A DNA stretch of 64,000 nucleotides from an uncultured Planctomycetota bacterium (GTDB taxonomy: Bacteria; Planctomycetota; Planctomycetia; Isosphaerales; Isosphaeraceae): the NCBI GenBank assembly GCA_963737655.1, contig CAVTTN010000002.1, positions 2,560,001 to 2,624,000 of the forward strand, given 5' to 3'. The notes below the pieces were generated by a model. That model saw only the letters and a program-made list of their open reading frames with translations, made no database searches and was not told the DNA's origin. The position numbers and the translations under genes are program-made. Below, piece by piece: positions 1 through 64,000 of this stretch (within the stretch, counting starts at the first letter, position 1; the number at the start of each line of letters is the position of its first letter).

Positions 1-807
1 TCGGCCGACCCCCGGCTCCGCGAATTCCGACTGTCGCCGCCCCGCCTGACCGAATTCAAGAACCGCGATGGCGAGACGCTTTTCGGGGCCTACTATGCCC
101 CGATCGGGGCCCCGGCCGGCAAGAAAGCCCCGCTCGTGGTCATGGTCTACGGAGGCCCTCACGTCCAGACCGTGACCGATTCCTGGGCCCTCTCGGCCGA
201 TCTCTCCGCGCAGTTCCTCGCGTCCCAGGGATTCGCGGTCTGGAAGGCCGACAACCGAGGTTCGAGCCGTCGCGGGCTGGCGTTCGAGTCGGCCCTGAAT
301 CGCCGGATGGGCGAGGTGGAGGTCCGCGACCAGCAAGACGGCGTGAAGTTCGTGGCGGCGAGCCAGCCCGACGCCGATCCCTCGCGGGTCGGCATCACCG
401 GAGGGAGCTACGGCGGCTACATGACGCTTCGGTGTCTCCTGCTCGCCCCCGAAACCTTCCACGTCGGCGTGTCGGTCGCCCCGGTGACGGACTGGGACGG
501 CTACGACACCGGCTATACCGAGCGCTACATGGGCACCCCGGAGAACAACCCGGAGGGCTACCGCGAATCGTCGGCCCTGACCCATGCCGGGAAGCTCCGG
601 GGCGACCTGCTGGTGATCCACGGGATGCTCGACGAGAACGTGCATTTCCGCCACTCGGCGAGGTTGACCAGCGCCCTGGTCGCGGCCGATCGCCCGTTCG
701 CGATCCTGCCGATCCCCAACGAGCGGCACTCCTCGCGCAAGGTCCCCGAGCGGAAATACGTCGCGGAGAAGACGGCCGAGTTCTTCCGGAGGCTCACCGA
801 GCGATGA
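1..807 (+). CDS. S9 family (DPP IV-like) serine peptidase, 5' partial
   Basis: Frame open from base 1. YGGP, GGSYGG nucleophile motif, DWDGYDTGYTERYMG, HG.DENVH and a C-terminal His. Confidence 0.92.
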   Translation, partial: SADPRLREFRLSPPRLTEFKNRDGETLFGAYYAPIGAPAGKKAPLVVMVYGGPHVQTVTDSWALSADLSAQFLASQGFAVWKADNRGSSRRGLAFESALNRRMGEVEVRDQQDGVKFVAASQPDADPSRVGITGGSYGGYMTLRCLLLAPETFHVGVSVAPVTDWDGYDTGYTERYMGTPENNPEGYRESSALTHAGKLRGDLLVIHGMLDENVHFRHSARLTSALVAADRPFAILPIPNERHSSRKVPERKYVAEKTAEFFRRLTER

Positions 808-1148
808 CGCCGACTCCCCATCCCCCTCGCGAAGACGACCCGGTCCTCCGCAACGCCCGGCGGGAGGCGCTCTGGATCATCTCCGCGTGGGCGGCGGCCA
901 CGGCGTATTGCTGCCTGTATTGTTATCGGTACGGCTACATCCGCGAGGGACGGCCCCTCGGCGTCGAGGACATCCAGCCGATCTGGGGCGTGCCGTCGTG
1001 GTTCTTCTGGGGAGTCCTGGCCCCGTGGCTGGCCTGCGGCCTGTTCACGGCGTGGTTCGTGGGGACGAAAATGGTGGAGGACGACCTCGGCGAGGACCAC
1101 GCCGGGGACCTGGAATCGGCCATCCGGGGCGGGGGCGACGATGAGTGA
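804..1148 (+). CDS. DUF997/YhdT-like small membrane protein
   Basis: ATGA overlap with the upstream stop. Two TM segments, NARREAL..W and G.P.WFFWG motifs. Directly upstream of an SSS symporter, as for yhdT-panF. Confidence 0.75.
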   Translation: MTPTPHPPREDDPVLRNARREALWIISAWAAATAYCCLYCYRYGYIREGRPLGVEDIQPIWGVPSWFFWGVLAPWLACGLFTAWFVGTKMVEDDLGEDHAGDLESAIRGGGDDE

Positions 1149-2781
1149 CGACCCTCTGAAAGGCCACTGGGGGCCGTTCCTCGCGTTGCTCCTGTTCACC
1201 CTCGCCTCGCTCGGCCTGGGCGTCCTGGCCAACCGCGTGACCGCGAAAAAAGCCGGGTTCCTGGAGAAATACTTCCTCGGCAACCGCTCGATGGGCGCGA
1301 TCGCCGTGGCCCTGACCGCCGCCGTGATGAGCGGCGGGTCCTTCCTCGGTTTTCCGTCGCTGGTTTACTCGTTCGGATGGGTCGTCGGCCTCTGGATCTG
1401 CTCCTACATGATCGCGCCGATGACCATCCTCGGCATCCTCGGCAAGAGGATCGGCCAGGTCTCCAGGAAGACCGGCGCCATCACCCTGCCCGACCTGTTC
1501 CGCGAGCGGTTCGACAGCCCCGGGCTCGGGCTGCTGACGAGCCTCCTCGTGATGGTCTTCCTCACGGCATTTCTCGTGGCGCAGTTCAAGGGCGGCGCGG
1601 TGATCATGAAGATCGTCCTGCCGAGGCAGACGGTCGGCTGGTTCGCCGTCGATTCGGGCGGCGGAACCGGTGACACCGGCTATTACGTCGGCCTGGCGAT
1701 CTTCGCGACTACGGTGATCGCCTACACGGCCTACGGGGGGTTCCTCGCGGCGATCTGGACCGACGTGTTCCAGAGCCTCGTGATGGCCGCCGGGGTCCTG
1801 ATCCTCTTCCCCCTGGCGATGGCGAAATCCTGGGGGCTGAACGCCGGGACGATGAACGGGATGGCGCAGGCCGGCCCGGGGTTCGCCTTCGGGCCGGGCG
1901 CCAACCGGGATTTCCACCCGATCGGCCTGGCGTTCTCGTTCTTCGTGATGTGGGCGATCGTCGGGATGGGCCAGCCCTCGACGCTCGTCCGCCTGATGGC
2001 GTTCCGCGACTCCCGGACCCTCCGCTATTCGATCCTCTATCAGACGTTCTACAACGCCCTGATCTACGTCCCCCTGATCTTCATCTTCGTCGCCGCCCGG
2101 GGCCTGCTGCCGGGCCTGTCGGCGCCCGACGAGGTCATGCCGCGATTGGTCGTCCACCTGGCCAACCCGTTCGTCGCCGGGTTCATCCTGGCGGCGCCTT
2201 ATGGGGCCGTGATGAGCACCGTGAGCGGGTTCCTGCTCATCGTGTCGTCGGGGCTGGTCCGCGACCTCTACCAGCGGTTCGTCCGCCCCGGGGCCGGCGA
2301 GCGGGAGCTGATCTGGGCGAGCTACGGGGCCACGGTCCTCGTCGGCCTGGTCGTCACGGTCCTCTCGCTGAACCCGCCGAAGTTCCTTCAGTTGATCGTG
2401 GTGTTCGCCAGCGCGGGGACGGCCTCGGCGTTCCTGGCCCCGGCGGTCTTCACCGCGTTCTGGAGGAGGGCGACGGCCCCCGGCGCCATCGCGGCGATGC
2501 TCTGCGGGAGCGCCACGGTCGTCGGCCTGTATGTCCTCGGGTCGATCGGCCCGGAGCGGCTCGGCGTGGCCTGGCTGGTCGGGGAGAACCCGCCGATCGG
2601 CGTTCCGGCGTCGTTCCGGCCGTTCTATCTCGGCGGCCTCGACCCGTGCATCTGGGGCCTCCTCGCCTCGTTCTCCGCCGGGATCGCGGTGAGCCTCGTG
2701 ACTACGCCGCCCGACGCCCGCCGCGTCTCCCTCCTGTTCGACGCCCCGCCGTCGCCCGTGCCGATCCCCGATCATGCCTAG
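1141..2781 (+). CDS. Sodium:solute symporter (PanF-like)
   Basis: 546 aa polytopic protein with YFLGNRSMG, ITLPDLFRERF, YTAYGGFLAAIWTDVFQ and AVMSTVSG motifs. Confidence 0.9.
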   Translation: MSDDPLKGHWGPFLALLLFTLASLGLGVLANRVTAKKAGFLEKYFLGNRSMGAIAVALTAAVMSGGSFLGFPSLVYSFGWVVGLWICSYMIAPMTILGILGKRIGQVSRKTGAITLPDLFRERFDSPGLGLLTSLLVMVFLTAFLVAQFKGGAVIMKIVLPRQTVGWFAVDSGGGTGDTGYYVGLAIFATTVIAYTAYGGFLAAIWTDVFQSLVMAAGVLILFPLAMAKSWGLNAGTMNGMAQAGPGFAFGPGANRDFHPIGLAFSFFVMWAIVGMGQPSTLVRLMAFRDSRTLRYSILYQTFYNALIYVPLIFIFVAARGLLPGLSAPDEVMPRLVVHLANPFVAGFILAAPYGAVMSTVSGFLLIVSSGLVRDLYQRFVRPGAGERELIWASYGATVLVGLVVTVLSLNPPKFLQLIVVFASAGTASAFLAPAVFTAFWRRATAPGAIAAMLCGSATVVGLYVLGSIGPERLGVAWLVGENPPIGVPASFRPFYLGGLDPCIWGLLASFSAGIAVSLVTTPPDARRVSLLFDAPPSPVPIPDHA

Positions 2782-3808
2782 GTTCCTGACGGCCCCGATC
2801 GACCGCGCCTCGGGCCTGGCCGCCCGGATCAACGAGGCGCTGGGCCGCAAGAGGGCCATGCTCGTGCCGTTGAGCTGGCTCTTGCTGGCGGTCCTCGGGA
2901 TCGTCTCGATCGTGTCGGTCGTCCTCGCGGGCGACTCCTGGAGGAATCGGGGCGGCCCTCGCGCATTGACGCTGGATCAGGTCTTCGTCGCGGGCGATTC
3001 GCTGATCGATCGCCTCGTGACGGTCCGCGGCGAGGTCCAGCCGCGACTGGCGATCGTCTCCTCGGAAGAAGCAGGGCCGGCGTTCGCGGTGATGACCGCC
3101 GACGAGCGGCGATTCTTGCTCGTGAAGGTCGATCGCAAGACCGACGACGCATTCACCGCGACCCTGACCGGGATGCTCCGGGCCCCGTCGCGTCGCCTGG
3201 CCGCCAAGCTCGACGAGATGGGCGGGCAGATCCTCGGAGTCCCCGTCGAATCCCGCTTCGTGCTCCTGCCCGGCGATCGGCCGTGGTCGGTGGGTTCGGC
3301 GGTCGCGCTCTCGATCGTCACGATCGGCCTGTTAAGCCTGTTCCTGGCCTCGAACCTCCGCCGAAACACGGTGTTCCGGGCCGATCCGGTCGCGATCGAG
3401 CCGATGGAAGGGGACGCCGGCGACCCGGAGGCGCGATTCTCGGGCGTCCTGGGCCGATCCGACGGCCGGGCCCGGCATTTCGTCGAGCTCCCGGCCAGGC
3501 TGGCGGTTCGCGACGGCCAGCTCGTGATCGAGGCGAGCGCCCGGGCGGCGTCGAGGGCGACGGGGGAGCGGCCCCGAGGCCCGAGGGAGGAGTGGTCGCT
3601 GGCCATCGCCGCCCCGGGCGCCCAGAATGTCGAGGCGGGCCGGATCTACTTCGGGACCGCGAGCCGCCCGGCCCTCCGAATCCGGACCGACGGGCCGAAG
3701 GGCCGATCCCTGGTCGTTTCGTTCCCCGACGAAACCCGGAGGGCCGTGGCCCTGGGGCGGTGGCTCGGGGACTCGGGGCCCGATCCGTCGAGGAGCGATG
3801 CGTCATGA
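2774..3808 (+). CDS. Hypothetical membrane protein
   Basis: 344 aa, two hydrophobic segments, overlaps both neighbours in operon fashion. Confidence 0.65.
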   Translation: MPRFLTAPIDRASGLAARINEALGRKRAMLVPLSWLLLAVLGIVSIVSVVLAGDSWRNRGGPRALTLDQVFVAGDSLIDRLVTVRGEVQPRLAIVSSEEAGPAFAVMTADERRFLLVKVDRKTDDAFTATLTGMLRAPSRRLAAKLDEMGGQILGVPVESRFVLLPGDRPWSVGSAVALSIVTIGLLSLFLASNLRRNTVFRADPVAIEPMEGDAGDPEARFSGVLGRSDGRARHFVELPARLAVRDGQLVIEASARAASRATGERPRGPREEWSLAIAAPGAQNVEAGRIYFGTASRPALRIRTDGPKGRSLVVSFPDETRRAVALGRWLGDSGPDPSRSDAS

Positions 3809-4653
3809 GCAGCGAATTCGTCCGGGTGGCGGGCGTGCAGATGGAGCCGGCGTTCGGCCGGGTCGAGGCGAACCTCGCCGCCATCGGCGACCGGCTCCGG
3901 GAGGCCGCCGCCGAGGGGGCGAGGCTCGTCGTCTTCCCCGAATGCGCCCTGACGGGCTACGGCTTCGCCTCCCGGGAGGAAGCGATGGGGTTCGCCGAGC
4001 CGATCGACGGCCCGAGCGTCCTCCAGGTCGCCTCGACCTGCCGGGAACTCGGCGTGTGGTGCGCCTTCGGCCTCCTGGAGCGCGACGGCGACCGCCTGTT
4101 CAACGCCTGCGCCCTGGTCGGCCCCGAGGGCCTGGTCGGCTCCTACCGCAAGGTTCACCTGCCGTTCCTCGGCGTCGATCGGTTCGCCGACCCGGGCGAC
4201 CGGCCCTTCGCCGTCCTGGACGCCGCCGGCCTGCGAGTCGGCCTGCACATCTGCTACGACGGCGCGTTCCCCGAGGTCGGCCGGGCGCTGGCCCTCCTCG
4301 GCGCCGACCTCCTGATCTTGCCCACCAACTGGCCCACGCACTCCGAATCGGCGGCCGAGCACATGATGCCGTGCCGGGCGATGGAGAACGTCGTCTACGC
4401 GATGGCCGTGAACCGGGTGGGCGAGGAGCGAGGCTTCCGGTTCATCGGCCGGAGCTCGATCGTCGATACCTCGGGGACCCGGCTGGCGATGGCCTCGGCC
4501 GACCGCGAGGAGATCCTCTTCGCCGAGCTCGACCCGAAGCGCGCCCGCCAGAAGAAGCTGATCCGGAGGCCCGGCCTCCACGAGATCGACCGCATCGCCG
4601 ACCGCCGACCGGCGTTCTACGGGAAGCTGGTCGAGCCGAACGGGCGGGAGTGA
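3805..4653 (+). CDS. Carbon-nitrogen hydrolase (nitrilase family)
   Basis: VFPEC (Glu), YRKVHL (Lys) and ICYD (Cys) catalytic triad; ATG 3805 overlaps the upstream stop. Confidence 0.93.
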   Translation: MSSEFVRVAGVQMEPAFGRVEANLAAIGDRLREAAAEGARLVVFPECALTGYGFASREEAMGFAEPIDGPSVLQVASTCRELGVWCAFGLLERDGDRLFNACALVGPEGLVGSYRKVHLPFLGVDRFADPGDRPFAVLDAAGLRVGLHICYDGAFPEVGRALALLGADLLILPTNWPTHSESAAEHMMPCRAMENVVYAMAVNRVGEERGFRFIGRSSIVDTSGTRLAMASADREEILFAELDPKRARQKKLIRRPGLHEIDRIADRRPAFYGKLVEPNGRE

Positions 4654-4764
4654 GGGAGGCCGCCAGGTCGGGTTGCATCACGGGCCGTCGATCGCTATCC
4701 TGCCGCCGTCGGCCTGAGCAGGCATTCAGGTTGAGACGACCCCGTTCCCGGGCAGGAGGCCCCC

Positions 4765-5241
4765 ATGCTCGCCCCCCCTCAGATCGTGACGAGTCCGGCC
4801 AGGTCGGCCGCGGTGATCCGCCTGTGCATCCCGAGGTCCGAGATCCGGACGGTGATGGGACCGGGCCTCCAAGAGATCCGGGCGGCCCTGGCCTCTCAGG
4901 GCATCGAAGCCGCCGGGCCCTGGTTCACCCGTCATCACCGGATGGACCCGGAGGTCTTCGATTTCGAGATCGGCGTGCCGGTCGAGTCGGCGGTGAAGCC
5001 CTCGGGCCGAGTCGAGCCCGGCGGATGGCCGGCGGCGACGGTCGCCCGGACGATCTACCAGGGTCCATACGAGGGCCTCGGGCCCGCCTGGGGCGAGTTC
5101 ATGGCCTGGATCGCCGCCCAGGGGCATTTGCCCGGCCCGGACCTCTGGGAAGTCTACTTCGAGGGGCCGGAGTCGGGGCCCGACCCCTCGGGATGGCGGA
5201 CCGAGCTGAACCGACCGTTGATTCTCGCCGACGAGCGGTGA
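4765..5241 (+). CDS. GyrI-like small-molecule-binding domain protein
   Basis: Y.GPYEGL..AW...WI and WEVY...P..WRTEL motifs; AGGAGG RBS. Confidence 0.8.
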   Translation: MLAPPQIVTSPARSAAVIRLCIPRSEIRTVMGPGLQEIRAALASQGIEAAGPWFTRHHRMDPEVFDFEIGVPVESAVKPSGRVEPGGWPAATVARTIYQGPYEGLGPAWGEFMAWIAAQGHLPGPDLWEVYFEGPESGPDPSGWRTELNRPLILADER

Positions 5242-5243
5242 CC

Positions 5244-5855
5244 TCAGCGTCTTCGCTTGGGCTTCGTCCCGCCGTCGTCCACGTCCCCCTTGATCAGGTC
5301 GAAGAAGTCATCGTCGGTCGCGGCGATGGGCTTGGGCGCGACGACGTGGTCGGGGATCTCGTCCTGGAGGACCTCCTCGTCGGCCTTGGGGCGGGCCATC
5401 GTCTCGGGAGGCCGCTGAGGCCGGGGGTTGCGACGGGTCGGCGCGTCGGGGTTCTCCAGCCCGGCGAGCTCCAGGAGGGATCGATTTCTCGGCGACTCCG
5501 CCATCTCTTCTTCGAGAATCTGGTTGGCGTCGAGCAGCGACGTCGGCGCCTCGGGGCTGTAATCGAGCATGTAGAAATGCCCGGCGATGCCTAGTTCGTC
5601 GTCGGGCATCAGGCCGTGCTCGCTGGAGATCCTCTGGCCGTTGACGGTCGTCCCGTTGGTGCTGCCCAGGTCGCGGACGTGCCACGTCCCCCGGATATAT
5701 TTCAGGGTGCAGTGCTTGCCCGAGATATTATCGAAATCCAGGCGGATATCGCAGGTCGGCCGTCGTCCGAGGATCAACTCGTCCTTCTTCAGAGGGATGG
5801 GGTCGCCGCCTCCCAGGGGGCGCATCACGCCCAGGCTCCTCCGCGGACTCATCAT
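5244..5855 (-). CDS. FHA domain protein
   Basis: LGR, ISGKH and DLGSTNGT.VNG FHA signature followed by an acidic disordered tail. Confidence 0.9.
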   Translation of the reverse strand: MMSPRRSLGVMRPLGGGDPIPLKKDELILGRRPTCDIRLDFDNISGKHCTLKYIRGTWHVRDLGSTNGTTVNGQRISSEHGLMPDDELGIAGHFYMLDYSPEAPTSLLDANQILEEEMAESPRNRSLLELAGLENPDAPTRRNPRPQRPPETMARPKADEEVLQDEIPDHVVAPKPIAATDDDFFDLIKGDVDDGGTKPKRRR

Positions 5856-12349: not shown

Positions 12350-13810
12350 TCACTTCTGGGGCGAGGCCGAGGCGGCCGGGGCCTCCGTCGTGGCCTGAGG
12401 CGTGGCCTGGGCCGAGGCCGCCGTCTGGGCCGAATAGACCACCGGCACCATCATGCAGGTCGTGACCGGGACCTGCTTGCTCACGTAGCGGGTCTGGCAC
12501 GTCATGACCGTCACCGGCACCTGCTCGGGGACGGTGACCGGCACCTGGCGGGTGTAGGTCTCGTTGACCTGGCGGGCCTGGGGGACCATCACCGTGACCT
12601 GGAACTGCTCGGGGACGGTGACCGGCACCTGGCGGGTGTAGGTCTCGTTGACCTGGCGGGCCTGGGGGACCATCACCGTGACCTGGAACTGCTCGGGGAC
12701 GGTGACCGGCACCTGGCGGGTGTAGGTCTCGTTGACCTGGCGGGCCTGGGGGACCATCACCGTGACCTGGAACTGCTCGGGGACGGTGACCGGCACCTGG
12801 CGGGTCAGGGTCTCGGCGACCATCCGGGTCTGGACGGTCGCGACCATGTGCGTCTGCTGCTGGGGGACCATCTTCATCGTGGTCACCGGGACGTTCTCGA
12901 CCATCTGCTGGGGGACGTTCACCATCGTCTGGACCGGGACCTGACGGGTCTGCATCGTCGGGACGTACTGGGTCTCGGTCACGTTGCGGACCACCTGCTG
13001 AGGCGTCGGGGCCGACTGGGCGCTGGCCGCCGCCTGGCCGCTCGCGGTGGTCCCGGCCGCCGAGTTCACCCACTCGGCAACCTGACGGGTCACCGAGACC
13101 GGCTGATTGACCATGTACGTCTCGTTCACGTACGACGTCTGCGGGACCTGCCGGCAGACCGTGTAGGCCCTCTGCTGATAGGTCGTCTCGGGGACCGGCA
13201 CCATCACCGTGGTCGTCTGAGGGACCTGGACCGTCTCGTAAACCGGCCGATTGACGACGTAGTTCTCGCTGCGGAACTCGGTCCGGTAGCGGGTCTGGGT
13301 CTGGGTCGTCGGCACCTGCTCGACCACGGTGCGAGTCACCGGCACCTGCTCGGTGCGGAACTCGGTCCGATAGCGGGTCTGGGTCTGGGTCGTCGGTACG
13401 TTCTCGACGACCGTCCTCGTCACCGGCACCTGCTCGGTGCGGAACTCGGTCCGATAGCGGGTCTGGGTCTGGGTCGTCGGCACCTGCTCGACCACGGTGC
13501 GAGTCACCGGCACCTGCTCGGTGCGATATTCGGTCCGGTAGCGGGTCTGCATCTGAGTGACCGGGACCTGCTCGACGACCGCCTCGGTGACCGTCTGATA
13601 GGTCGTCTGGTACTGCGGGACCATCGTGACCATCGACCCGCAGTAGGAACCGACAGACCCGCACGCCGAGGCATAGGCGACGGCCGGCCCGGTCCCGGCG
13701 CAGAGGCTCATCCCCTTGCCGCACTTGTGACACGCCAGCGCCTCGCCACTCAGGGCCAGCAAGGCCAAGGGCGACGCCAGCCACATGCTCCTCTTCATCC
13801 CGATTCTCAT
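12350..13810 (-). CDS. Secreted V/T/Q/P-rich repetitive protein
   Basis: Signal peptide (ALA-C), two blocks of 28-aa repeats, Cys near both ends. Confidence 0.8.
   Translation of the reverse strand: MRIGMKRSMWLASPLALLALSGEALACHKCGKGMSLCAGTGPAVAYASACGSVGSYCGSMVTMVPQYQTTYQTVTEAVVEQVPVTQMQTRYRTEYRTEQVPVTRTVVEQVPTTQTQTRYRTEFRTEQVPVTRTVVENVPTTQTQTRYRTEFRTEQVPVTRTVVEQVPTTQTQTRYRTEFRSENYVVNRPVYETVQVPQTTTVMVPVPETTYQQRAYTVCRQVPQTSYVNETYMVNQPVSVTRQVAEWVNSAAGTTASGQAAASAQSAPTPQQVVRNVTETQYVPTMQTRQVPVQTMVNVPQQMVENVPVTTMKMVPQQQTHMVATVQTRMVAETLTRQVPVTVPEQFQVTVMVPQARQVNETYTRQVPVTVPEQFQVTVMVPQARQVNETYTRQVPVTVPEQFQVTVMVPQARQVNETYTRQVPVTVPEQVPVTVMTCQTRYVSKQVPVTTCMMVPVVYSAQTAASAQATPQATTEAPAASASPQK
12509..12804 (-). 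repeat. 84-bp tandem repeat (about 3.5 units), C-terminal arm
   Basis: Units at 12521, 12605, 12689 and 12773 encode VPVTVPEQFQVTVMVPQARQVNETYTRQ. Confidence 0.95.
13270..13580 (-). repeat. 84-bp tandem repeat (about 3.7 units), N-terminal arm
   Basis: Units at 13271, 13355, 13439 and 13523 encode RYRTEFRTEQVPVTRTVVEQVPTTQTQT. Confidence 0.93.
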
Positions 13811-58599: not shown

Positions 58600-58723
58600 T
58601 CGACGCTAGGATTGGCCCGGGGCGACGAATCGGGCGGCGATCACCGCCCTCCACTGGATCGGCGGATGAGGACTTGTCATGCTGGGCCGGCCCGAACCGA
58701 CGACCCGCCGGGGCCCCGCGACG

Positions 58724-59767
58724 ATGCCGCGAGACGAGACCTGCCTGCGCCGCCAGTGGGCGCTGCTCCGCGCCCTGTCGGCCGCAAGGACCGGCCTGAC
58801 CCTCCGCGAGATGGCCGCCGAGCTCGGCGTGACCGAGCGGACGATCCGCCGCGACCTCGACGTCTTCCGCGACGTCGGATTCCCCCTGGAGGAGCAGGTC
58901 GGCGACTTCGGCCGCAAGGCCTGGAGGGTCCGGCCGGGCGTCGGCCCCCCGCTGGCGTTCACCTTCGACGAGGCGGTCGCGCTGCACCTCGGCCGCAGGC
59001 TGCTGGAGCCCCTGGCCGGCACCTTCTTCGGGGACGCCTCCCTTAACGCGTTCCGGAAGATCCGCGCCGCCCTGGGCACCGAGGCCCTCCGCTACGTCGA
59101 TCGCTTCGCGGGCACCTTCTACCAGGCCGGCGTCGGCCTCGGCGACTACAGGGCCAAGGCCGAGCTGATCGACGCCCTGGTCGTCGCCGCCGAGGACTCG
59201 CGCGAGGCCCGGATCGTCTACCGCTCCGAGGGCGAGGCCGGGGCGTCGCCGCGTGAGGTCCGGCCCTTCGGCGTGGTGTACCACCGCGGGGCGCTGTACC
59301 TGGTCGCCGAGGACGCGGCCCAGGGGCGGATCAAGCACTACAAGATCGACCGGGTCGAGGAGGCCGAGGCCCTGGGCCGGAGGTTCGAGCGGCCCGAGGG
59401 CTTCGACCTGGCCGAACACATGGCCGCGGCCTTCGGCGTCTATCGGAACGGGGAGCCGACGGCGGTGAAGGTCCGCTTCGGGCCGGCGGCGGCGCGGTAC
59501 GTCCGCGAGGCCCGCTGGCACGAGAGCCAGGCCCTGACGGACCTGCCCGACGGCGGGGTCCTGGCCGAGTTCACCGTCTCCGGGACCGAGGCGATCAAGC
59601 GCTGGGTCCTCGGCTTCGGCGCCAAGGCCGTCGTCGTCGAGCCAGACGCCCTGAGGAGAGAAATCCAGCAGGAACTGGAGGAGACCCTTTCGGCCTACAG
59701 GGGCCCCGAATGCAGCAGCGCAACGCGAAGAGCCGCATCTCCGGTCGGCGACCGGCACCAACGCTGA
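58724..59767 (+). CDS. HTH-WYL-WCX transcriptional regulator
   Basis: E.A.ELGVTERTIRRD, R.V.P..V.Y..GALYLVA, YK.DR, and the WCX motif WVLGFG....V.EP..LR. Confidence 0.92.
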   Translation: MPRDETCLRRQWALLRALSAARTGLTLREMAAELGVTERTIRRDLDVFRDVGFPLEEQVGDFGRKAWRVRPGVGPPLAFTFDEAVALHLGRRLLEPLAGTFFGDASLNAFRKIRAALGTEALRYVDRFAGTFYQAGVGLGDYRAKAELIDALVVAAEDSREARIVYRSEGEAGASPREVRPFGVVYHRGALYLVAEDAAQGRIKHYKIDRVEEAEALGRRFERPEGFDLAEHMAAAFGVYRNGEPTAVKVRFGPAAARYVREARWHESQALTDLPDGGVLAEFTVSGTEAIKRWVLGFGAKAVVVEPDALRREIQQELEETLSAYRGPECSSATRRAASPVGDRHQR

Positions 59768-59815
59768 CCAGGCTCGTCCCTGGTTGGGCCATCGTCCTGG
59801 GCCTCCCGACTGAAG

Positions 59816-59916
59816 GGGGCGAACGCCCGGAGGCGTCGTGGTCAGGTGAAAGAGCGGGCCTTGCGACGACCTCGCTTTTCTGCTCAACGCCGATACGGCG
59901 TCTTCTGTCGAGTCGG
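59816..59916 (-). CRISPR. Degenerate mini-CRISPR (repeat-28 nt spacer-repeat), CreR/CreA-like regulatory crRNA
   Basis: Minus strand: CCGACTCGACAGAAGACGCCGTATCGGCGTTGAGCAG / AAAAGCGAGGTCGTCGCAAGGCCCGCTC / TTTCACCTGACCACGACGCCTCCGGGCGTTCGCCCC. Both repeats keep the GAYGCC-loop-GGCGTT stem of I-B/MYXAN repeats. Confidence 0.78.
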
Positions 59917-59961
59917 GAGTCGGCCCAGGACGGCCGGATACGGATTTTGCCAGAGGGCTGG

Positions 59962-60030
59962 TTGTCAGTCGAGCCTCCTCAGCCGATAGTAATGGCGGAG
60001 GTTCGAGCCTACCTCGCTTTTCGTTGGGAG
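59962..60030 (+). promoter_or_regulatory. Putative promoter/leader of the sigma-cas operon containing the mini-array target
   Basis: TTGTCA-17 bp-GATAGT; seed match 60011-60021 with minus-strand PAM ACG (60022-60024); RBS GGGAG 60026-60030. Confidence 0.6.
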
Positions 60031-60037
60031 ACTAGAG

Positions 60038-60606
60038 ATGTCGGGACCAATTCCGATCGACTGGACGCCGGGGTCGCCCTTCATGCGGCTGCTCCAGGGC
60101 CTCACGGCTCGTTTCTCGAGCCGATGGGGGCCGGACGATCCATGGGAGGCGCTCTCCGACGTGTGGCTGGGGATACGGCGGGCCTTCGACGGGCAGGGGT
60201 TCGTGGATCCGTGTAGCGGCCTCCTTCGGACGGTCGTGGCGCGAGGGGTCATCAATCACTTCCGAAGTCGCGGAGTCAGGCCGCCCCGTCAACTTGCCTT
60301 CTCCTCGTTGGAGGCCCCTGAGGCTTTGCAGGTCGCCTCGGGCCATCGGGCGCCCGTCGAGGAGGTGATCGCCCGCGAAGGACGTCGCCTGATCGAGGCC
60401 CGGATCTCTGGGATGCCCCCCGCCAGGGCCGAGGCCGTCCGATCCCGCCTGGGGTATCCGGGGGCCCCGAGCCCTCGGAACTGGCCCAGATGCAGGGCAA
60501 GACCCGCCAGAGCGTGTACAAGCAGGCCGAGAAGGGCCTCTCGGACCTCCAACACTTCGCCGAGAGTTATTGCCTCGATCCGCGCCCCCAGGCGACGCCG
60601 CGATGA
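60038..60606 (+). CDS. Sigma-70/ECF-like protein, frameshift near 60478
   Basis: Region-2-like D...EA.SDVWL..L.TV.AR..INHFR; EE.IARE....I...I..MP....A...R. One extra G gives the region-4 HTH SPRELAQMQGKTRQSVYKQAEKGL and a stop at 60606. Confidence 0.68.
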
Positions 60607-60622
60607 GGCGGAGGGAAAGACC

Positions 60623-61330
60623 ATGCCGACGATCGATCTTTCATTGGCCCTCCGGGGGGATACGATCCCCCTGGACTATGGGTATCCCCTCCTCTCGGCC
60701 CTGGCGAGGATCGTCCCCCAGATCCACGGGGACCGCAGGATCGGCGTCCACGGAGTCCGGGGCATCCGGCACTCGCCCCAGCGGCTGACGCTCGTGCGCC
60801 AGTCGCGATTGCGGCTGAGGATGCCGTCGGAGGAGATCCCGACCTACCTGGCCCTGGTCGGGGCCGAGATCGACCTGGACGGCTCCAGGTTATGGATCGG
60901 GCTCCCGGGGGCCGTCCGCGGCCCGGGGGGAGAGCGTGGGGCCCCGGTGGAGGCCATCCGGGTCGAGCCGCTCCGGCCCTCGGCGGACCTGTCCTCCCGG
61001 CTGGTCACGATCGGCCACTACCGCGAGCCGGGGCCGTTCGAGGAGGGCCTGAGACGGCAACTGGCCTCCCTGGGCGTCACCGCCGAGCCGAGCTTCCTCC
61101 CCTCGACCGACCCGAAGGGACGGGGCGGGCCCGAGAGGCGAGTCGTCCGGATCAAGGGGCGGAAGATCGTCGGCTTCCCGATCCGGATCTCGGGGCTGAC
61201 GGCTCAAGAGTCCATTCTTGTTCAGGAAAATGGGCTTGGATCGAGGAGGAGGATGGGCTGCGGCTTATTCGTCCCGACCCCGTCGCGATTAGCGACCGGG
61301 GCCCTTCCCCCGACCCCCTCCGAGGAGTGA
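60623..61330 (+). CDS. cas6: Type I-MYXAN CRISPR endoribonuclease Cas6 (Cmx6)
   Basis: IDL...LRG..IP.DYGY.L.SAL, L.L.G..I.L.G, L.SRLVTI and the G-rich loop GLG.RR.MGCGLF.P; own GGAGG RBS. Confidence 0.92.
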   Translation: MPTIDLSLALRGDTIPLDYGYPLLSALARIVPQIHGDRRIGVHGVRGIRHSPQRLTLVRQSRLRLRMPSEEIPTYLALVGAEIDLDGSRLWIGLPGAVRGPGGERGAPVEAIRVEPLRPSADLSSRLVTIGHYREPGPFEEGLRRQLASLGVTAEPSFLPSTDPKGRGGPERRVVRIKGRKIVGFPIRISGLTAQESILVQENGLGSRRRMGCGLFVPTPSRLATGALPPTPSEE

Positions 61331-61333
61331 GCG

Positions 61334-63857
61334 ATGACGACCGAAGGCCCCCTGCTCGCCAAGTCCCCCCCGAAGGGCGGCGGCCCGCCCCCCCACGAGA
61401 TCACCCTGATCGGCCATACGGAATGCGTCCTCCACGCCGTCGATGCGATCTTCGGCGAGAGGGGCCGTCCGACGCCGCTGGCCCGGTCCTGGCTCCGCTT
61501 CTTCGGGATCGCCGAGGACCAATTCGATCGATTCCGCCGCCACCTCCGGGTCTCCGCCGCGGCCCATGATTGGGGGAAGGCGAACGACGGCTTTGGCGCG
61601 ATGATCCGCAAGGAAGGGCAGCAGTCCGTCCGCCACGAGCACCTGAGCGGCTACCTCCTGGCCGACCTGCTCGCCGACCCCGGCGTCTCCGCCTGGCTGG
61701 AGGGCGCCGGGATCGATGGCCGGATCGTCCTCGCGGCGGTCCTCGGGCACCACGCGAAGGCGGCGAAGGCGGGGCGCGACCACGAGGTCGGCCAGTGGTC
61801 CGGCATCGCCGACTCGTTCCGGGTCCGCTCCGATCACACCGACTTCGACGCGATCTGGCGGCTGATCCAGGACGAGGTGGGGACTTCGGCGCCGGCGGGC
61901 CCGACGTTCCCGGGACGCCTGAAGCAGGCGCCCGCCTTCGAGCGGTTCAAGAGGCTCCACGCGACGCTCGGGGCCGAGCAGAAGCGCCTCCGAGAGAATC
62001 CCCAGGCCATGCGCTGGGTCGCGGCCGTCCGCGCCGGCCTGATCGCGGCCGATTCGGTCGGCTCGGCGTCCGTCCGCATGGAGGACCACGAGAAGGACCC
62101 GGGCCGGAGGATCGGCCGGTTCGTCGGCGAGTGCTTCGCGAAGGCCCTGACCGCCGAGGAGGTCTGGGGCAAGGTCGTCGTTGAGCGGGTAGGGAGCCTC
62201 AGGGCGAACCGGCGGTGGGACGACTCGAAGGGCGAGCGGGTCCGCCGCCTCGCCGGGTTCCACAAGTTCCAGGCGGGGATCGCGGTCCAGGGCCCTCGCG
62301 TCCTGATGACGGCGGCCTGCGGCTCGGGCAAGACGCTGGCGGCCTGGGTCTGGATTGTCGAGCAGTTGGAGAGGCGCGAGAGAAGGGATTCGCACGTCTC
62401 GCGTCCTCTTCCTCTACCCGACGCGGGCCACGGCCACCGAGGGCTTCCGCGACTACGTCTCGTGGGCGCCCGAGGACGACGCCGGCCTCCTCAGCGGGAC
62501 CGCCGCCTACGAACTGAAGGACATCTTCGGCACGCCCGACGACTCCGCCTCGAAAGACCCCCGGCGCGGCCGGAACTACCAATCGGAGTCGCGGCTCTTC
62601 GCCCTCGGCCACTGGAAGAAGCGGATCTTCTCGGCGACGGCCGACCAGTTCTTCCCGTTCCTCCAGTTCGAATACGGGCCGCTCTGCCTCCTGCCGCTGC
62701 TGGCCGAGTCGATCGTCGTCGTCGACGAGGTCCACTCGTTCGACCGCTCGATGTTCTCCACCCTCAGGCGGTTCCTCCGCGAGTTCCCCGCCGTCCCGGT
62801 CCTCTGCATGACGGCCACGCTCTCGAAGATCCGGAGGGGCGAGCTCCTCGACCCGGCCATCGGCGGCCTGACCGCCTACCCCAGGGAGATGCCGATCGAC
62901 CTCGAAGAGGACGCCACCCACCCCCGCTATCGCGTCGAGTGGATCGACCGCGAGGGGGCGGGACCCCTCGCCCGCGACGAGCTCGCCGCCGGCCGCCGCG
63001 TCCTCTGGGTCTCCAACCGCGTGGCCGACTGCCAGGACGCCTACGAGGCCGCCCGCGACCCCGACGAGGTCCATTCCGATTCGGATTCGATCCGGCGATT
63101 CTGCTACCACAGCCGCTACAGGCTCAAGGACCGCAAGGACCGTCATCGCGAGCTGGTCGAAGCGTTCCAGGACTCGGCCCGGGGAACGGCGGAAGGGCCG
63201 GGAGTCTTCGGCTCGACGACGCAGGTTTGCGAGATGTCCTTGGATTTGGATGCCCAAGTCCTGATCACGTCTCTCGCCCCGATCGCCTCCCTGATTCAAC
63301 GAATGGGAAGGTGTAATCGTGATTCTAAGAGGATGAAATCGGAGGGGCTCATCGGCCGGGTCTACGTGATCCGGCCCGAGCCCGGGAAGGAACTCCCTTA
63401 CGAAAAAGAGGAGCTGGAGGCGGCCGAGCGGTTCGTGGACGCGATCGTCGGCCTGCGGGGTCCCGAACAGGCGATTTCGCAGCAGAAGTTGGAGGACCTC
63501 TACCGCAAATTCGATCCCAGCCAGGAGGAACCCGAGTTGCTGAGCCCCTTCCTCGACTCCGGACCCTACGCCGCCGCGAAGGAGGCGTCGTTCCGCGACA
63601 TCGAGGCGCATACCGTCCCGTGCCTCCTGGACGACGACCTGAAGCACAAGGTCATCCCCATCCTCCAGGCCCATGACCCGGCCGAGCGGATCATCGACGG
63701 CTTCGTCGTGCCGGTCCCGAGGCGATTCGCGACCGAGCCGAAGCCCGAGGCAACCTGGTTCCCTCGCTGGCTCTCCGTGGCGAGGATGTCGGCCTACGAC
63801 GAGGCGATCGGCTTCGACGAACGGAAGATCGCCCCGGGCGGCGGGGGTGACGCATGA
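61334..63857 (+). CDS. cas3: Cas3 HD nuclease-helicase, frameshift near 62380
   Basis: LAKS..H, HDWGKAN, RHE, HH, CGSGKT; next frame FLYPT, DEVH, MTATL, TQVCEMSLDLD and QRMGRCNR. Confidence 0.94.
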
Positions 63858-64000
63858 GCAAGGCCAAGGGCAAGGCACCGGCCGTCGAGTCGATCTCCCT
63901 GACCTTCGACCTCCACGACCTCCCCACCGCCCAGCACCGCGCGGGCCTGGCGGGCCTGATCTTCCAGGTCGATGCGATGGTTGCGTCGAAACGGCCCGGG
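63854..64000 (+). CDS. cas8: Cas8 (Cmx8, I-B/MYXAN), 3' partial
   Basis: ATGA overlap with cas3; L.FDL.DLPTAQH.AGLAGL N-terminal Cmx8 motif. Confidence 0.82.
   Translation, partial: MSKAKGKAPAVESISLTFDLHDLPTAQHRAGLAGLIFQVDAMVASKRPG

Follow-up and report, generated by a model that had tools for sequence, protein, structure and literature searches.

A predicted CreR-type mini-CRISPR beside the cas operon of a Myxan-subtype type I-B system in Planctomycetota

What might a solitary, degenerate repeat-spacer-repeat unit be doing beside the cas operon of an uncultured Planctomycetota bacterium, and why do the first letters of its spacer recur at the promoter of that same operon? We have addressed this question in a stretch of 64,000 nucleotides (nt) of the source genome (the window, G000:C2:2560001-2624000), in which the locus of CRISPR (short palindromic repeats, clustered and spaced at regular intervals) and cas genes, L001, begins and from whose end it runs off. 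We consider it very likely that the element is a regulatory mini-CRISPR of the CreR type (Cas-regulating RNA), which belongs to a type I-B system of the Myxan subtype and represses its own operon. The initial annotation had read the locus as auto-repression by Cascade (the antiviral defence complex associated with CRISPR), guided by a divergently transcribed RNA similar to a CRISPR RNA (crRNA). Our analysis supports this reading through the kinship of the element with the genome's own array, through a seed that is unique in the assembly and through covarying pairs of spacer and target that keep an AYG protospacer-adjacent motif (PAM).

Read on the minus strand, the element begins with a first degenerate repeat, psiR1 (59916-59880; CCGACTCGACAGAAGACGCCGTATCGGCGTTGAGCAG), which carries the hairpin GACGCC-GTATC-GGCGTT, then GAGCAG, and has the 3' end TTGAGCAG. 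It is followed by a spacer-like guide segment of 28 nt, psiS (59879-59852; AAAAGCGAGGTCGTCGCAAGGCCCGCTC), and by a second degenerate repeat, psiR2 (59851-59816; TTTCACCTGACCACGACGCCTCCGGGCGTTCGCCCC), with the hairpin GACGCC-TCCG-GGCGTT and a 3' tail decayed to CGCCCC. Every letter of the two repeats and of the 28-nt spacer agrees with the annotated minus-strand arrangement. The unit is placed between the gene of a WYL-domain regulator, which is convergent with it, and an operon that starts with a sigma-like gene and continues with the cas genes. The genome's CRISPR array of 85 repeats lies beyond the window end (G000:C2:2629691-2635730), and its repeat, GTGACCCCGACGACGAAGCCTTCGGGCTTTGAGCAG, ends with GGGCTTTGAGCAG. 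It has been anticipated that this repeat would be related to the two pseudo-repeats, and it is: psiR1 and the array repeat have the GAGCAG tail in common, and their hairpins differ by one compensatory change of A-T to C-G (GAAGCC/GGCTTT in the array, GACGCC/GGCGTT in psiR1), while psiR2, compared in register, is identical to the array repeat at 22 of 36 positions, and at 20 of 25 within positions 6-30. The loop of psiR2 also has the 4 nt of the array repeat, and its last six letters are unrelated to it. The repeat consensus given in the annotation, GATGCC-N4-GGCGTTGAGCAC, agrees with the arrays of relatives. A covariance model trained solely on nine array repeats of this family and run on the 64-kilobase (kb) window placed psiR1 (59881-59902) first among its 29 matches at E<=10 (16.8 bits, E 0.039), and the psiR2 hairpin (59822-59837) 15th (9.0 bits, E 4.1). 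All this points to a solitary degenerate repeat-spacer-repeat unit beside the cas operon that is related to the system's own array repeat. Elsewhere in the window, weak matches to the same model at 12477-12796 and 13316-13519 on the minus strand have a regular 84-nt spacing, which suggests a tandem-repeat region.

Where would psiS lead an effector complex? The seed AAAAGCGAGGT, which corresponds to spacer positions 1-11, is repeated at 60021-60011, with the first mismatch at position 12. The putative protospacer extends over 59994-60021 on the minus strand, where 18 of the 28 footprint positions match; psiS matches at positions 1-11, 13, 15, 17 and 19. A PAM-like ACG (60024-60022, minus strand) stands 5' of the protospacer, 14 nt before the start codon at 60038. 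The motif AAAAGnGAGGT occurs twice in the 7.63-Mb assembly when both strands are counted, once in the spacer and once in the target, 142 nt apart. Upstream of the target lies the candidate promoter of the sigma-like/cas operon, TTGTCA-17-GATAGT (59962-59990, plus strand), the sole sigma-70-like site in 59650-60150; 50 shuffled sequences gave 0.0 such sites on average. The target sits between its -10-like GATAGT and the start codon, and with a promoter at 59962-59990 the 28-nt footprint would start a few bases past the -10 element. The recurrence of the seed behind ACG, the mismatch at position 12 and the promoter upstream were all annotated as we find them. Complementarity between the spacer and this PAM-flanked site at the cas-operon promoter is thus partial and confined to the PAM-proximal part.

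The proteins encoded at the locus suggest which complex would read this site. Judged by the marker proteins Cmx8/Cas8b (TIGR04413, 366.8 bits, cut-off 150), Cas6/Cmx6 (TIGR02807, 177 bits, cut-off 98.85; Pfam Cas6, 3.4e-50) and Cas1_MYXAN (TIGR03983, 468.7 bits, cut-off 358), all over their curated cut-offs, the system is a type I-B CRISPR-Cas system of the Myxan subtype; cas5, with 80.7 bits, stays below its cut-off of 111.5. For the Myxan-subtype I-B Cascade of Synechocystis PCC 6714, the best PAM has been measured as 5'-AYG-3', and a study by cryogenic electron microscopy reports for this subtype a 5+1 periodicity in which every sixth crRNA base is flipped out (PMC11096372).

Do related loci contain such pairs of spacer and target? 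A Cas6 alignment gave 67 loci from our genome collection, 68 with that of the source genome. We first consider a search that was free of any PAM requirement, which covered 14 solitary repeat-like sites (12 from a scan for hairpin plus handle, two found by eye) and demanded a seed of at least 8 pairing positions. Six of these 14 candidates have a target 139-180 nt away (the source genome, L026, L044, L065, L069 and L042), and ACG or ATG precedes the target in all six. Seed matches of 8-9 in L049 and L078, located about 3 kb away and without AYG, are taken as chance. The six remaining candidates have no target by the PAM-free rule; L022 is among them, and reading of its sequence gives an ATG target with mismatches at positions 6, 9 and 12. 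In the six pairs, mismatches fall on position 12 in every pair, on position 18 in five and on position 6 in four. Positions 10, 14, 16 and 17 are mismatched in one pair each, and positions 1-5, 7-9, 11, 13 and 15 in none; from position 19 to 30 complementarity is mostly lost (mismatches in 3-6 of the six pairs). A periodicity of this kind is what a type I Cascade would be expected to give. For a control, 6400 random pseudo-spacers were drawn from 16 of the loci, and no more than 13 of them combined a seed of 8 or more with AYG within 350 nt.

A second scan disregarded the repeats and looked, within 1.5 kb upstream of cas6 in the 68 loci, for AYG followed by at least 13 of 15 pairing positions. 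It returned 399 pairs, and the 8 letters in front of the 'spacer' had a likeness of at least 7/8 to the handle TTGAGCAC in seven loci only, namely L001 (the source genome), L022, L026, L069, L044, L065 and L042, the next best score being 5/8. When the same scan was applied out of sample to 80 metagenome loci, 50 of which have at least 700 nt upstream, it found L102 (ACG, 14/15) and L096/L097 (ATG). Inspection by eye added two cases with a sigma-like gene, L098 (ACG, spacer/target mismatches at 6 and 12) and L116/L117 (ACG, seed pairing at 1-5 and 7-9 only), whose psiR1 stems show further compensatory changes (GACGCT/AGCGTT and GACAC/GTGTT). Genome G248, with an array like that of the source genome, has a WYL gene, a divergent mini-CRISPR, an ATG target behind TACTAT and then a sigma-like gene. 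If L096/L097 and L116/L117 are each taken as one, there are then 12 loci, every one with a spacer/target pair of its own, and four of them were found by eye; the eleven besides the source genome come from Planctomycetota, one Myxococcota and metagenome contigs, and the PAM is ACG or ATG in all. The covariation that had been proposed as a check of the annotated circuit is thus found in homologous loci, with different covarying pairs and the PAM kept. The series is unusually clean: different guides, a shared PAM and mismatches at the flipped-out sixth positions together would amount to an in-silico footprint of Cascade.

The architecture of these loci is also retained. The psiR1 hairpin and GGCGTTGAGCAN are kept in the seven loci of seven that we examined; psiR2 keeps its hairpin and has lost the handle-coding tail in six of them, L069 being the exception with a full second repeat. 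Where the mini-CRISPR is divergent and its target on the minus strand, as in nine loci, the PAM precedes the presumed start codon of the sigma-like gene by 11-32 nt, and by 14-18 nt in six of these; the two Gemmataceae loci, L044 and L065, have a plus-strand target that overlaps the start. Elements resembling a -10 box (TATAGT, TATAGA and TACTAT) adjoin the target in L026, L069 and G248. Further solitary repeats, in L017 (+8508, +10645, -1679, -1624), L049 (+2768), L025 (+1008), L047 (+3855) and L056 (-8308), have no convincing target. Some of these are well kept: genome G017 has extra solitary repeats (L017 8472-8508 and 10609-10645, plus strand; 1624-1679, minus strand). One is at the cas5/cas4 junction, another precedes the array by 360 nt, and two more lengthen the divergent mini-array to three; no target for their spacers was found within the 12-kb locus. 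Tandem repeats of another kind, unrelated to the CRISPR repeat and about 42-43 nt apart (for example with units that contain AAGCCCCGCGCGCTTCG), lie some 500-1200 nt upstream of cas6 in Sorangium and other Myxococcota loci (L043, L051, L057, L061, L062, L064, L067 and L082).

These comparisons bear directly on a different explanation of the repeated letters. The 12-mer ACCTCGCTTTTC, present on the plus strand at 59869-59880 and 60011-60022, could be an operator pair, for instance of the WYL regulator, or the tail of two plus-strand terminator or attenuator hairpins, the repeat-like hairpins being incidental. A gene for a regulator with a helix-turn-helix (HTH) domain does adjoin, the first copy lies about 100 nt past the WYL stop codon, where a terminator would be expected, and a weak terminator-like hairpin with a GCTTTTCGTT tail is found at 59998-60015 on the plus strand. 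The matched sequences are, however, all different in the other loci, one copy is always directly 3' of a repeat handle and the other always 3' of ACG or ATG, and mismatches at positions 6 and 12 are tolerated. None of these three features would be predicted for a terminator or for the operator of a protein. Moreover, in L044, L065 and L042 the copies are on opposite strands with the PAM side still kept, and the putative terminator tail has only 4 T. We therefore regard an operator or terminator as the least probable of the explanations considered here, and a very improbable one.

How would a CreR-type element act at this locus? We propose that psiR1-psiS-psiR2 would be transcribed from the minus strand and that Cas6 would cut both repeat hairpins, which would release a crRNA-like RNA whose guide of 28 nt stands between a 5' handle of the normal kind, with GAGCAG at its end, and a 3' hairpin. 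Cascade (Cmx8/Cas8b, Cas7, Cas5 and Cas6) would load this RNA, read the ACG PAM at 60024-60022 and pair with the seed site at 60021-60011, just past the -10 element in the promoter that heads the sigma-like/cas6/cas3/cmx8 operon. Pairing would end after about 13-19 nt, so the R-loop would be incomplete and, as we propose, Cas3 would not be licensed. The bound Cascade may then serve as a roadblock that lowers transcription of its own operon, giving a negative feedback that would sense free Cascade; this feedback logic is taken from the published CreR work and from a survey of mini-arrays (PMC10120712). Transcription, processing, binding, repression and the absence of cleavage are all steps that we infer.

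Several observations weigh against this proposal. A consensus scan of 59650-60150 found no sigma-70-like site that could serve as promoter of the minus-strand RNA, and the psiR1 loop has 5 nt versus 4 nt in the array repeat; the predicted fold of the minus-strand RNA (59806-59930) is also no more stable than that of shuffled sequences (z -0.95). The contiguous match of the source genome's pair, 11 nt, is the shortest among all the loci, and the terminator-like hairpin mentioned above overlaps the target. The PAM evidence has its own limits: AYG was required in the repeat-agnostic scans of genomes and metagenomes, which are thus no independent test of the PAM, and the targets of L022, L098, L116/L117 and G248, found by eye while seeking AYG, are weaker PAM evidence. 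A further point is a stretch that covers the psiR1 tail and the spacer seed (59866-59891, plus strand), in which 24 of 26 nt are identical to the HTH-coding part (RDLAVLLKAG) of a WYL gene in genome G041, a distant relative (L016 4283-4308). This identity stops on both flanks, is too good for chance and is unexplained. An origin of the stretch as a relic of a WYL gene was considered and rejected: the 24/26 identity does not extend, and the likeness at protein level covers at most 8 residues.

To these observations must be added that the genome's own 84 spacers did not yield a PAM. They gave two weak matches of at least 24 nt in the own genome; the whole array had no match in the phage collection; and in 121 genomes of the order they gave partial, GC-rich matches only, with inconsistent upstream triplets (TCG, CGA, ACC, ATC and CGT). 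The array of a relative, L015, had no match among the phages either, and one spacer of the L060 array has matches of 83-93% in conserved terminase genes of phages, those of Pseudomonas among them, one record showing GCG upstream; the terminase match being to a homolog and not to the true target, it is uninformative for the PAM. The annotated AYG-like PAM consequently stands in one respect, by the ACG or ATG at the six PAM-free targets and by the AYG of the literature, and fails in the other, as it is not derivable from the genome's own spacers.

Is the locus of this strain still active? The cas7 gene (L001 7701-8689; G000:C2 ~2625700-2626700) aligns to its homolog in the related genome G012 in three frames, so that two frameshifts are apparent, and the sigma-like gene is read in two frames, with an apparent frameshift between 60454 and 60478. 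Should these frameshifts be real, and not homopolymer errors of the assembly, this strain would have a broken Cascade and the element would be a relic in it. The unit could, on this view, be a decayed remnant, either a dead array fragment or a former regulator that is now inert, its seed match having no present function. This would suit the degenerate state of both pseudo-repeats, the short spacer (28 nt, versus 34-40 nt for those of the genome's array) and a spacer/target match that is the weakest of the series. The break points in cas7 and in the sigma-like gene, however, sit at short G or C runs, and the assembly has 3 contigs and yet 87.7% marker completeness, which suggests that long-read assembly has left indel errors here. 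In L065 (3399-4001) and in G248 (L198) the sigma-like gene also looks frameshifted, at sites that differ from genome to genome and coincide mostly with G/C runs. The handle, the two hairpins, the seed and the PAM are, in addition, all intact, and the architecture is kept across two phyla. For these reasons we hold a remnant to be improbable, somewhat less so than an operator or terminator, and continue to favour a functional CreR-type element.

What, then, is the first gene of the operon? The open reading frame 60038-61330 does not encode one protein, which corrects the annotation: it contains a sigma-like gene (60038-60606, plus strand) and then cas6 (60623-61330, plus strand), which encodes the endoribonuclease of the repeat hairpins (Cas6/Cmx6). 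The sigma-like product has about 180 amino acids, with a sigma region-4 domain at its C-terminus. Its homolog in L022 aligns over residues 7-139 in one frame (60056-60454) and over 148-172 in another (60478-60552), the frame changing at a GGGGGCCCC run, and the stop codon is at 60604-60606. A profile built from eight sigma-like homologs finds region 4 in many sigma factors of solved structure (best E 4.9e-5); no Pfam family matches the protein below E 0.07, and its N-terminal half matches nothing. A word search found five database relatives, two of which are called 'sigma24 family' by the Joint Genome Institute (JGI), and a metagenome scan with the sigma-like alignment had no match. The gene is present in six of the 68 genome loci, in five according to a profile for which some of these very sequences had been used, and in L065 by eye. 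The array itself has a good sigma-70-like promoter in its leader (TTGAAA-17-CATAAT, L001 11641-11669; G000:C2 2629641-2629669), 22 nt before the first repeat, so that it is in no obvious need of a special sigma factor.

The mini-CRISPR was found in all six genome loci with the sigma-like gene, versus one of the 62 without it, and the target lies directly before the sigma-like gene rather than before cas6. Both observations would fit a safeguard or addiction module similar to CreA, in which the RNA keeps a harmful or alarm-type sigma-like gene silent as long as Cascade is intact, and the gene fires when Cascade is lost or inhibited; Cascade-repressed toxins have indeed been published, in CreTA (PMC9458426) and as a protein toxin (bioRxiv 10.1101/2024.01.05.574328). 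The related loci are nevertheless not independent samples, and the co-occurrence is a description and no test. The sigma-like gene is also co-oriented with cas6-cas3-cmx8 and only 16 nt from cas6, so repression at the target would lower the cas genes too; its sole recognisable domain is sigma region 4, with no toxin fold, and L042 and L096/L097 have a mini-CRISPR without a sigma-like gene. We consider such a safeguard unlikely, if the least unlikely of the three alternatives to autorepression. A broader idea, for which we would keep some room while doubting it, is that the sigma-like gene and the mini-CRISPR belong together as a single module: Cascade carrying the crRNA-like RNA would hold a dedicated sigma-like transcription factor silent and, when Cascade is titrated by crRNAs, lost or blocked by an anti-CRISPR, this factor would activate a wider response of cas/CRISPR or other defence genes. 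If this were true, the module would act as a transcriptional alarm for the integrity of the CRISPR effector. Should the sigma-like protein really be a transcription factor, other promoters would be coupled through the circuit to the state of the effector.

Upstream of the mini-CRISPR, the WYL-domain transcription regulator (58679-59767, plus strand) has an HTH, a WYL and a WCX domain (Pfam WCX 3.5e-21, WYL 4.2e-14, HTH_11 1.5e-07), and a WYL gene is found upstream of cas6 in 22 of the 68 related loci. Downstream of cas6, cas3 (61334-63857, plus strand) has its HD part in one frame (to ~62368) and its helicase part in another (62355-63857); the same split occurs at the same place in G012 (L012 8954-11784), and it is probably due to two genes or a shared shift, rather than to an error. 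The start of cmx8/cas8b (63854-64000, plus strand) runs off the window, beyond which follow cas7, cas5, cas4-cas1, cas2 and then the 85-repeat array.

The kind of element that we propose here is already published. CreR mini-CRISPRs were described in 2023 in type I-B, I-E and V-A systems (bioRxiv 10.1101/2023.03.10.532045). As in that work, we find a degenerate two-repeat mini-CRISPR that adjoins the cas operon, the nucleotides of the 5' handle are conserved in psiR1 and the hairpin of the 3' handle in psiR2 in both systems, and partial complementarity links the spacer to a PAM-flanked site at the effector-gene promoter, autorepression being the predicted outcome. The case described here differs in that it is a Myxan I-B system in Planctomycetota, known from its sequence, and in that a sigma-like gene, not a cas gene, stands directly behind the target. 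The words Myxococc, Planctomyc, sigma and WYL are absent from the main text of the CreR paper. For type I-B, Shmakov et al. (PMC10120712) also reported regulatory mini-arrays, which lie upstream of cas6 and are directed at the stretch in front of it. These share with our element the position upstream of cas6, a predicted target in between, the PAM of the subtype and a match confined to the seed; in most of our loci, in contrast, the unit is divergent from the operon. The main text and two supplementary files of that survey hold no Planctomycetota, Myxococcus, sigma or WYL; its other supplements may list such loci. More generally, we found no account in the literature of such an element in the Myxan subtype, in Planctomycetota or with a sigma-like gene, with the same proviso for supplements that we did not see.

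The comparison extends to CreA, the crRNA-like antitoxin RNA of the CreTA modules in haloarchaeal I-B systems, which guides Cascade to repress a promoter (PMC9458426; PMC10120712). CreA is likewise a crRNA-like RNA from one or two ectopic repeats that acts by partial pairing without cleavage. It differs in that it represses creT, a gene for a small toxic RNA, whereas the predicted target here belongs to a cas operon headed by the gene of a sigma-like protein, with no recognisable toxin in it.

Another system of the Myxan subtype is found in the dev operon of Myxococcus xanthus, where DevT, DevR and DevS, the Cas8, Cas7 and Cas5 of the Myxan subtype, repress their own operon about 10-fold (bioRxiv 10.1101/2023.07.26.550624; PMC6061681). 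The subtype is the same and, in both cases, Cascade subunits would repress their own operon; these accounts of DevTRS autoregulation, as far as they were available to us, name no guide. Cmx8 was found in 5 of 151 genomes of the Myxococcus family and not in the five Myxococcus genomes behind L037, L046, L047, L060 and L072, and the repeat-agnostic scan gave no pair of mini-CRISPR and target in the three usable Myxococcaceae cmx8 loci (L174, L175 and L177), so a mechanism shared with DevTRS stays a guess. A guide-RNA logic of the same kind might underlie the long-known and unexplained autoregulation by DevTRS. In L174 (genome G177) a long array (330-5338) ends about 490 nt upstream of cas6 (5827) on the same strand, as in the M. 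xanthus dev locus, whose layout is described as 'array on both sides'; the sequence after the last repeat of the L174 array has no seed match nearby.

Set against these known systems, what is new here is the clade and the co-occurrence of the mini-CRISPR with a sigma-like first gene. A scan that combines handle, AYG and 5+1 seed is a simple finder of such regulators in other genomes. Our predictions would extend RNA-guided self-repression of CRISPR-Cas to the Myxan I-B systems of Planctomycetota and to one Myxococcota locus, and the partnership with the sigma-like gene might make the element a variant of the published CreR and regulatory mini-arrays.

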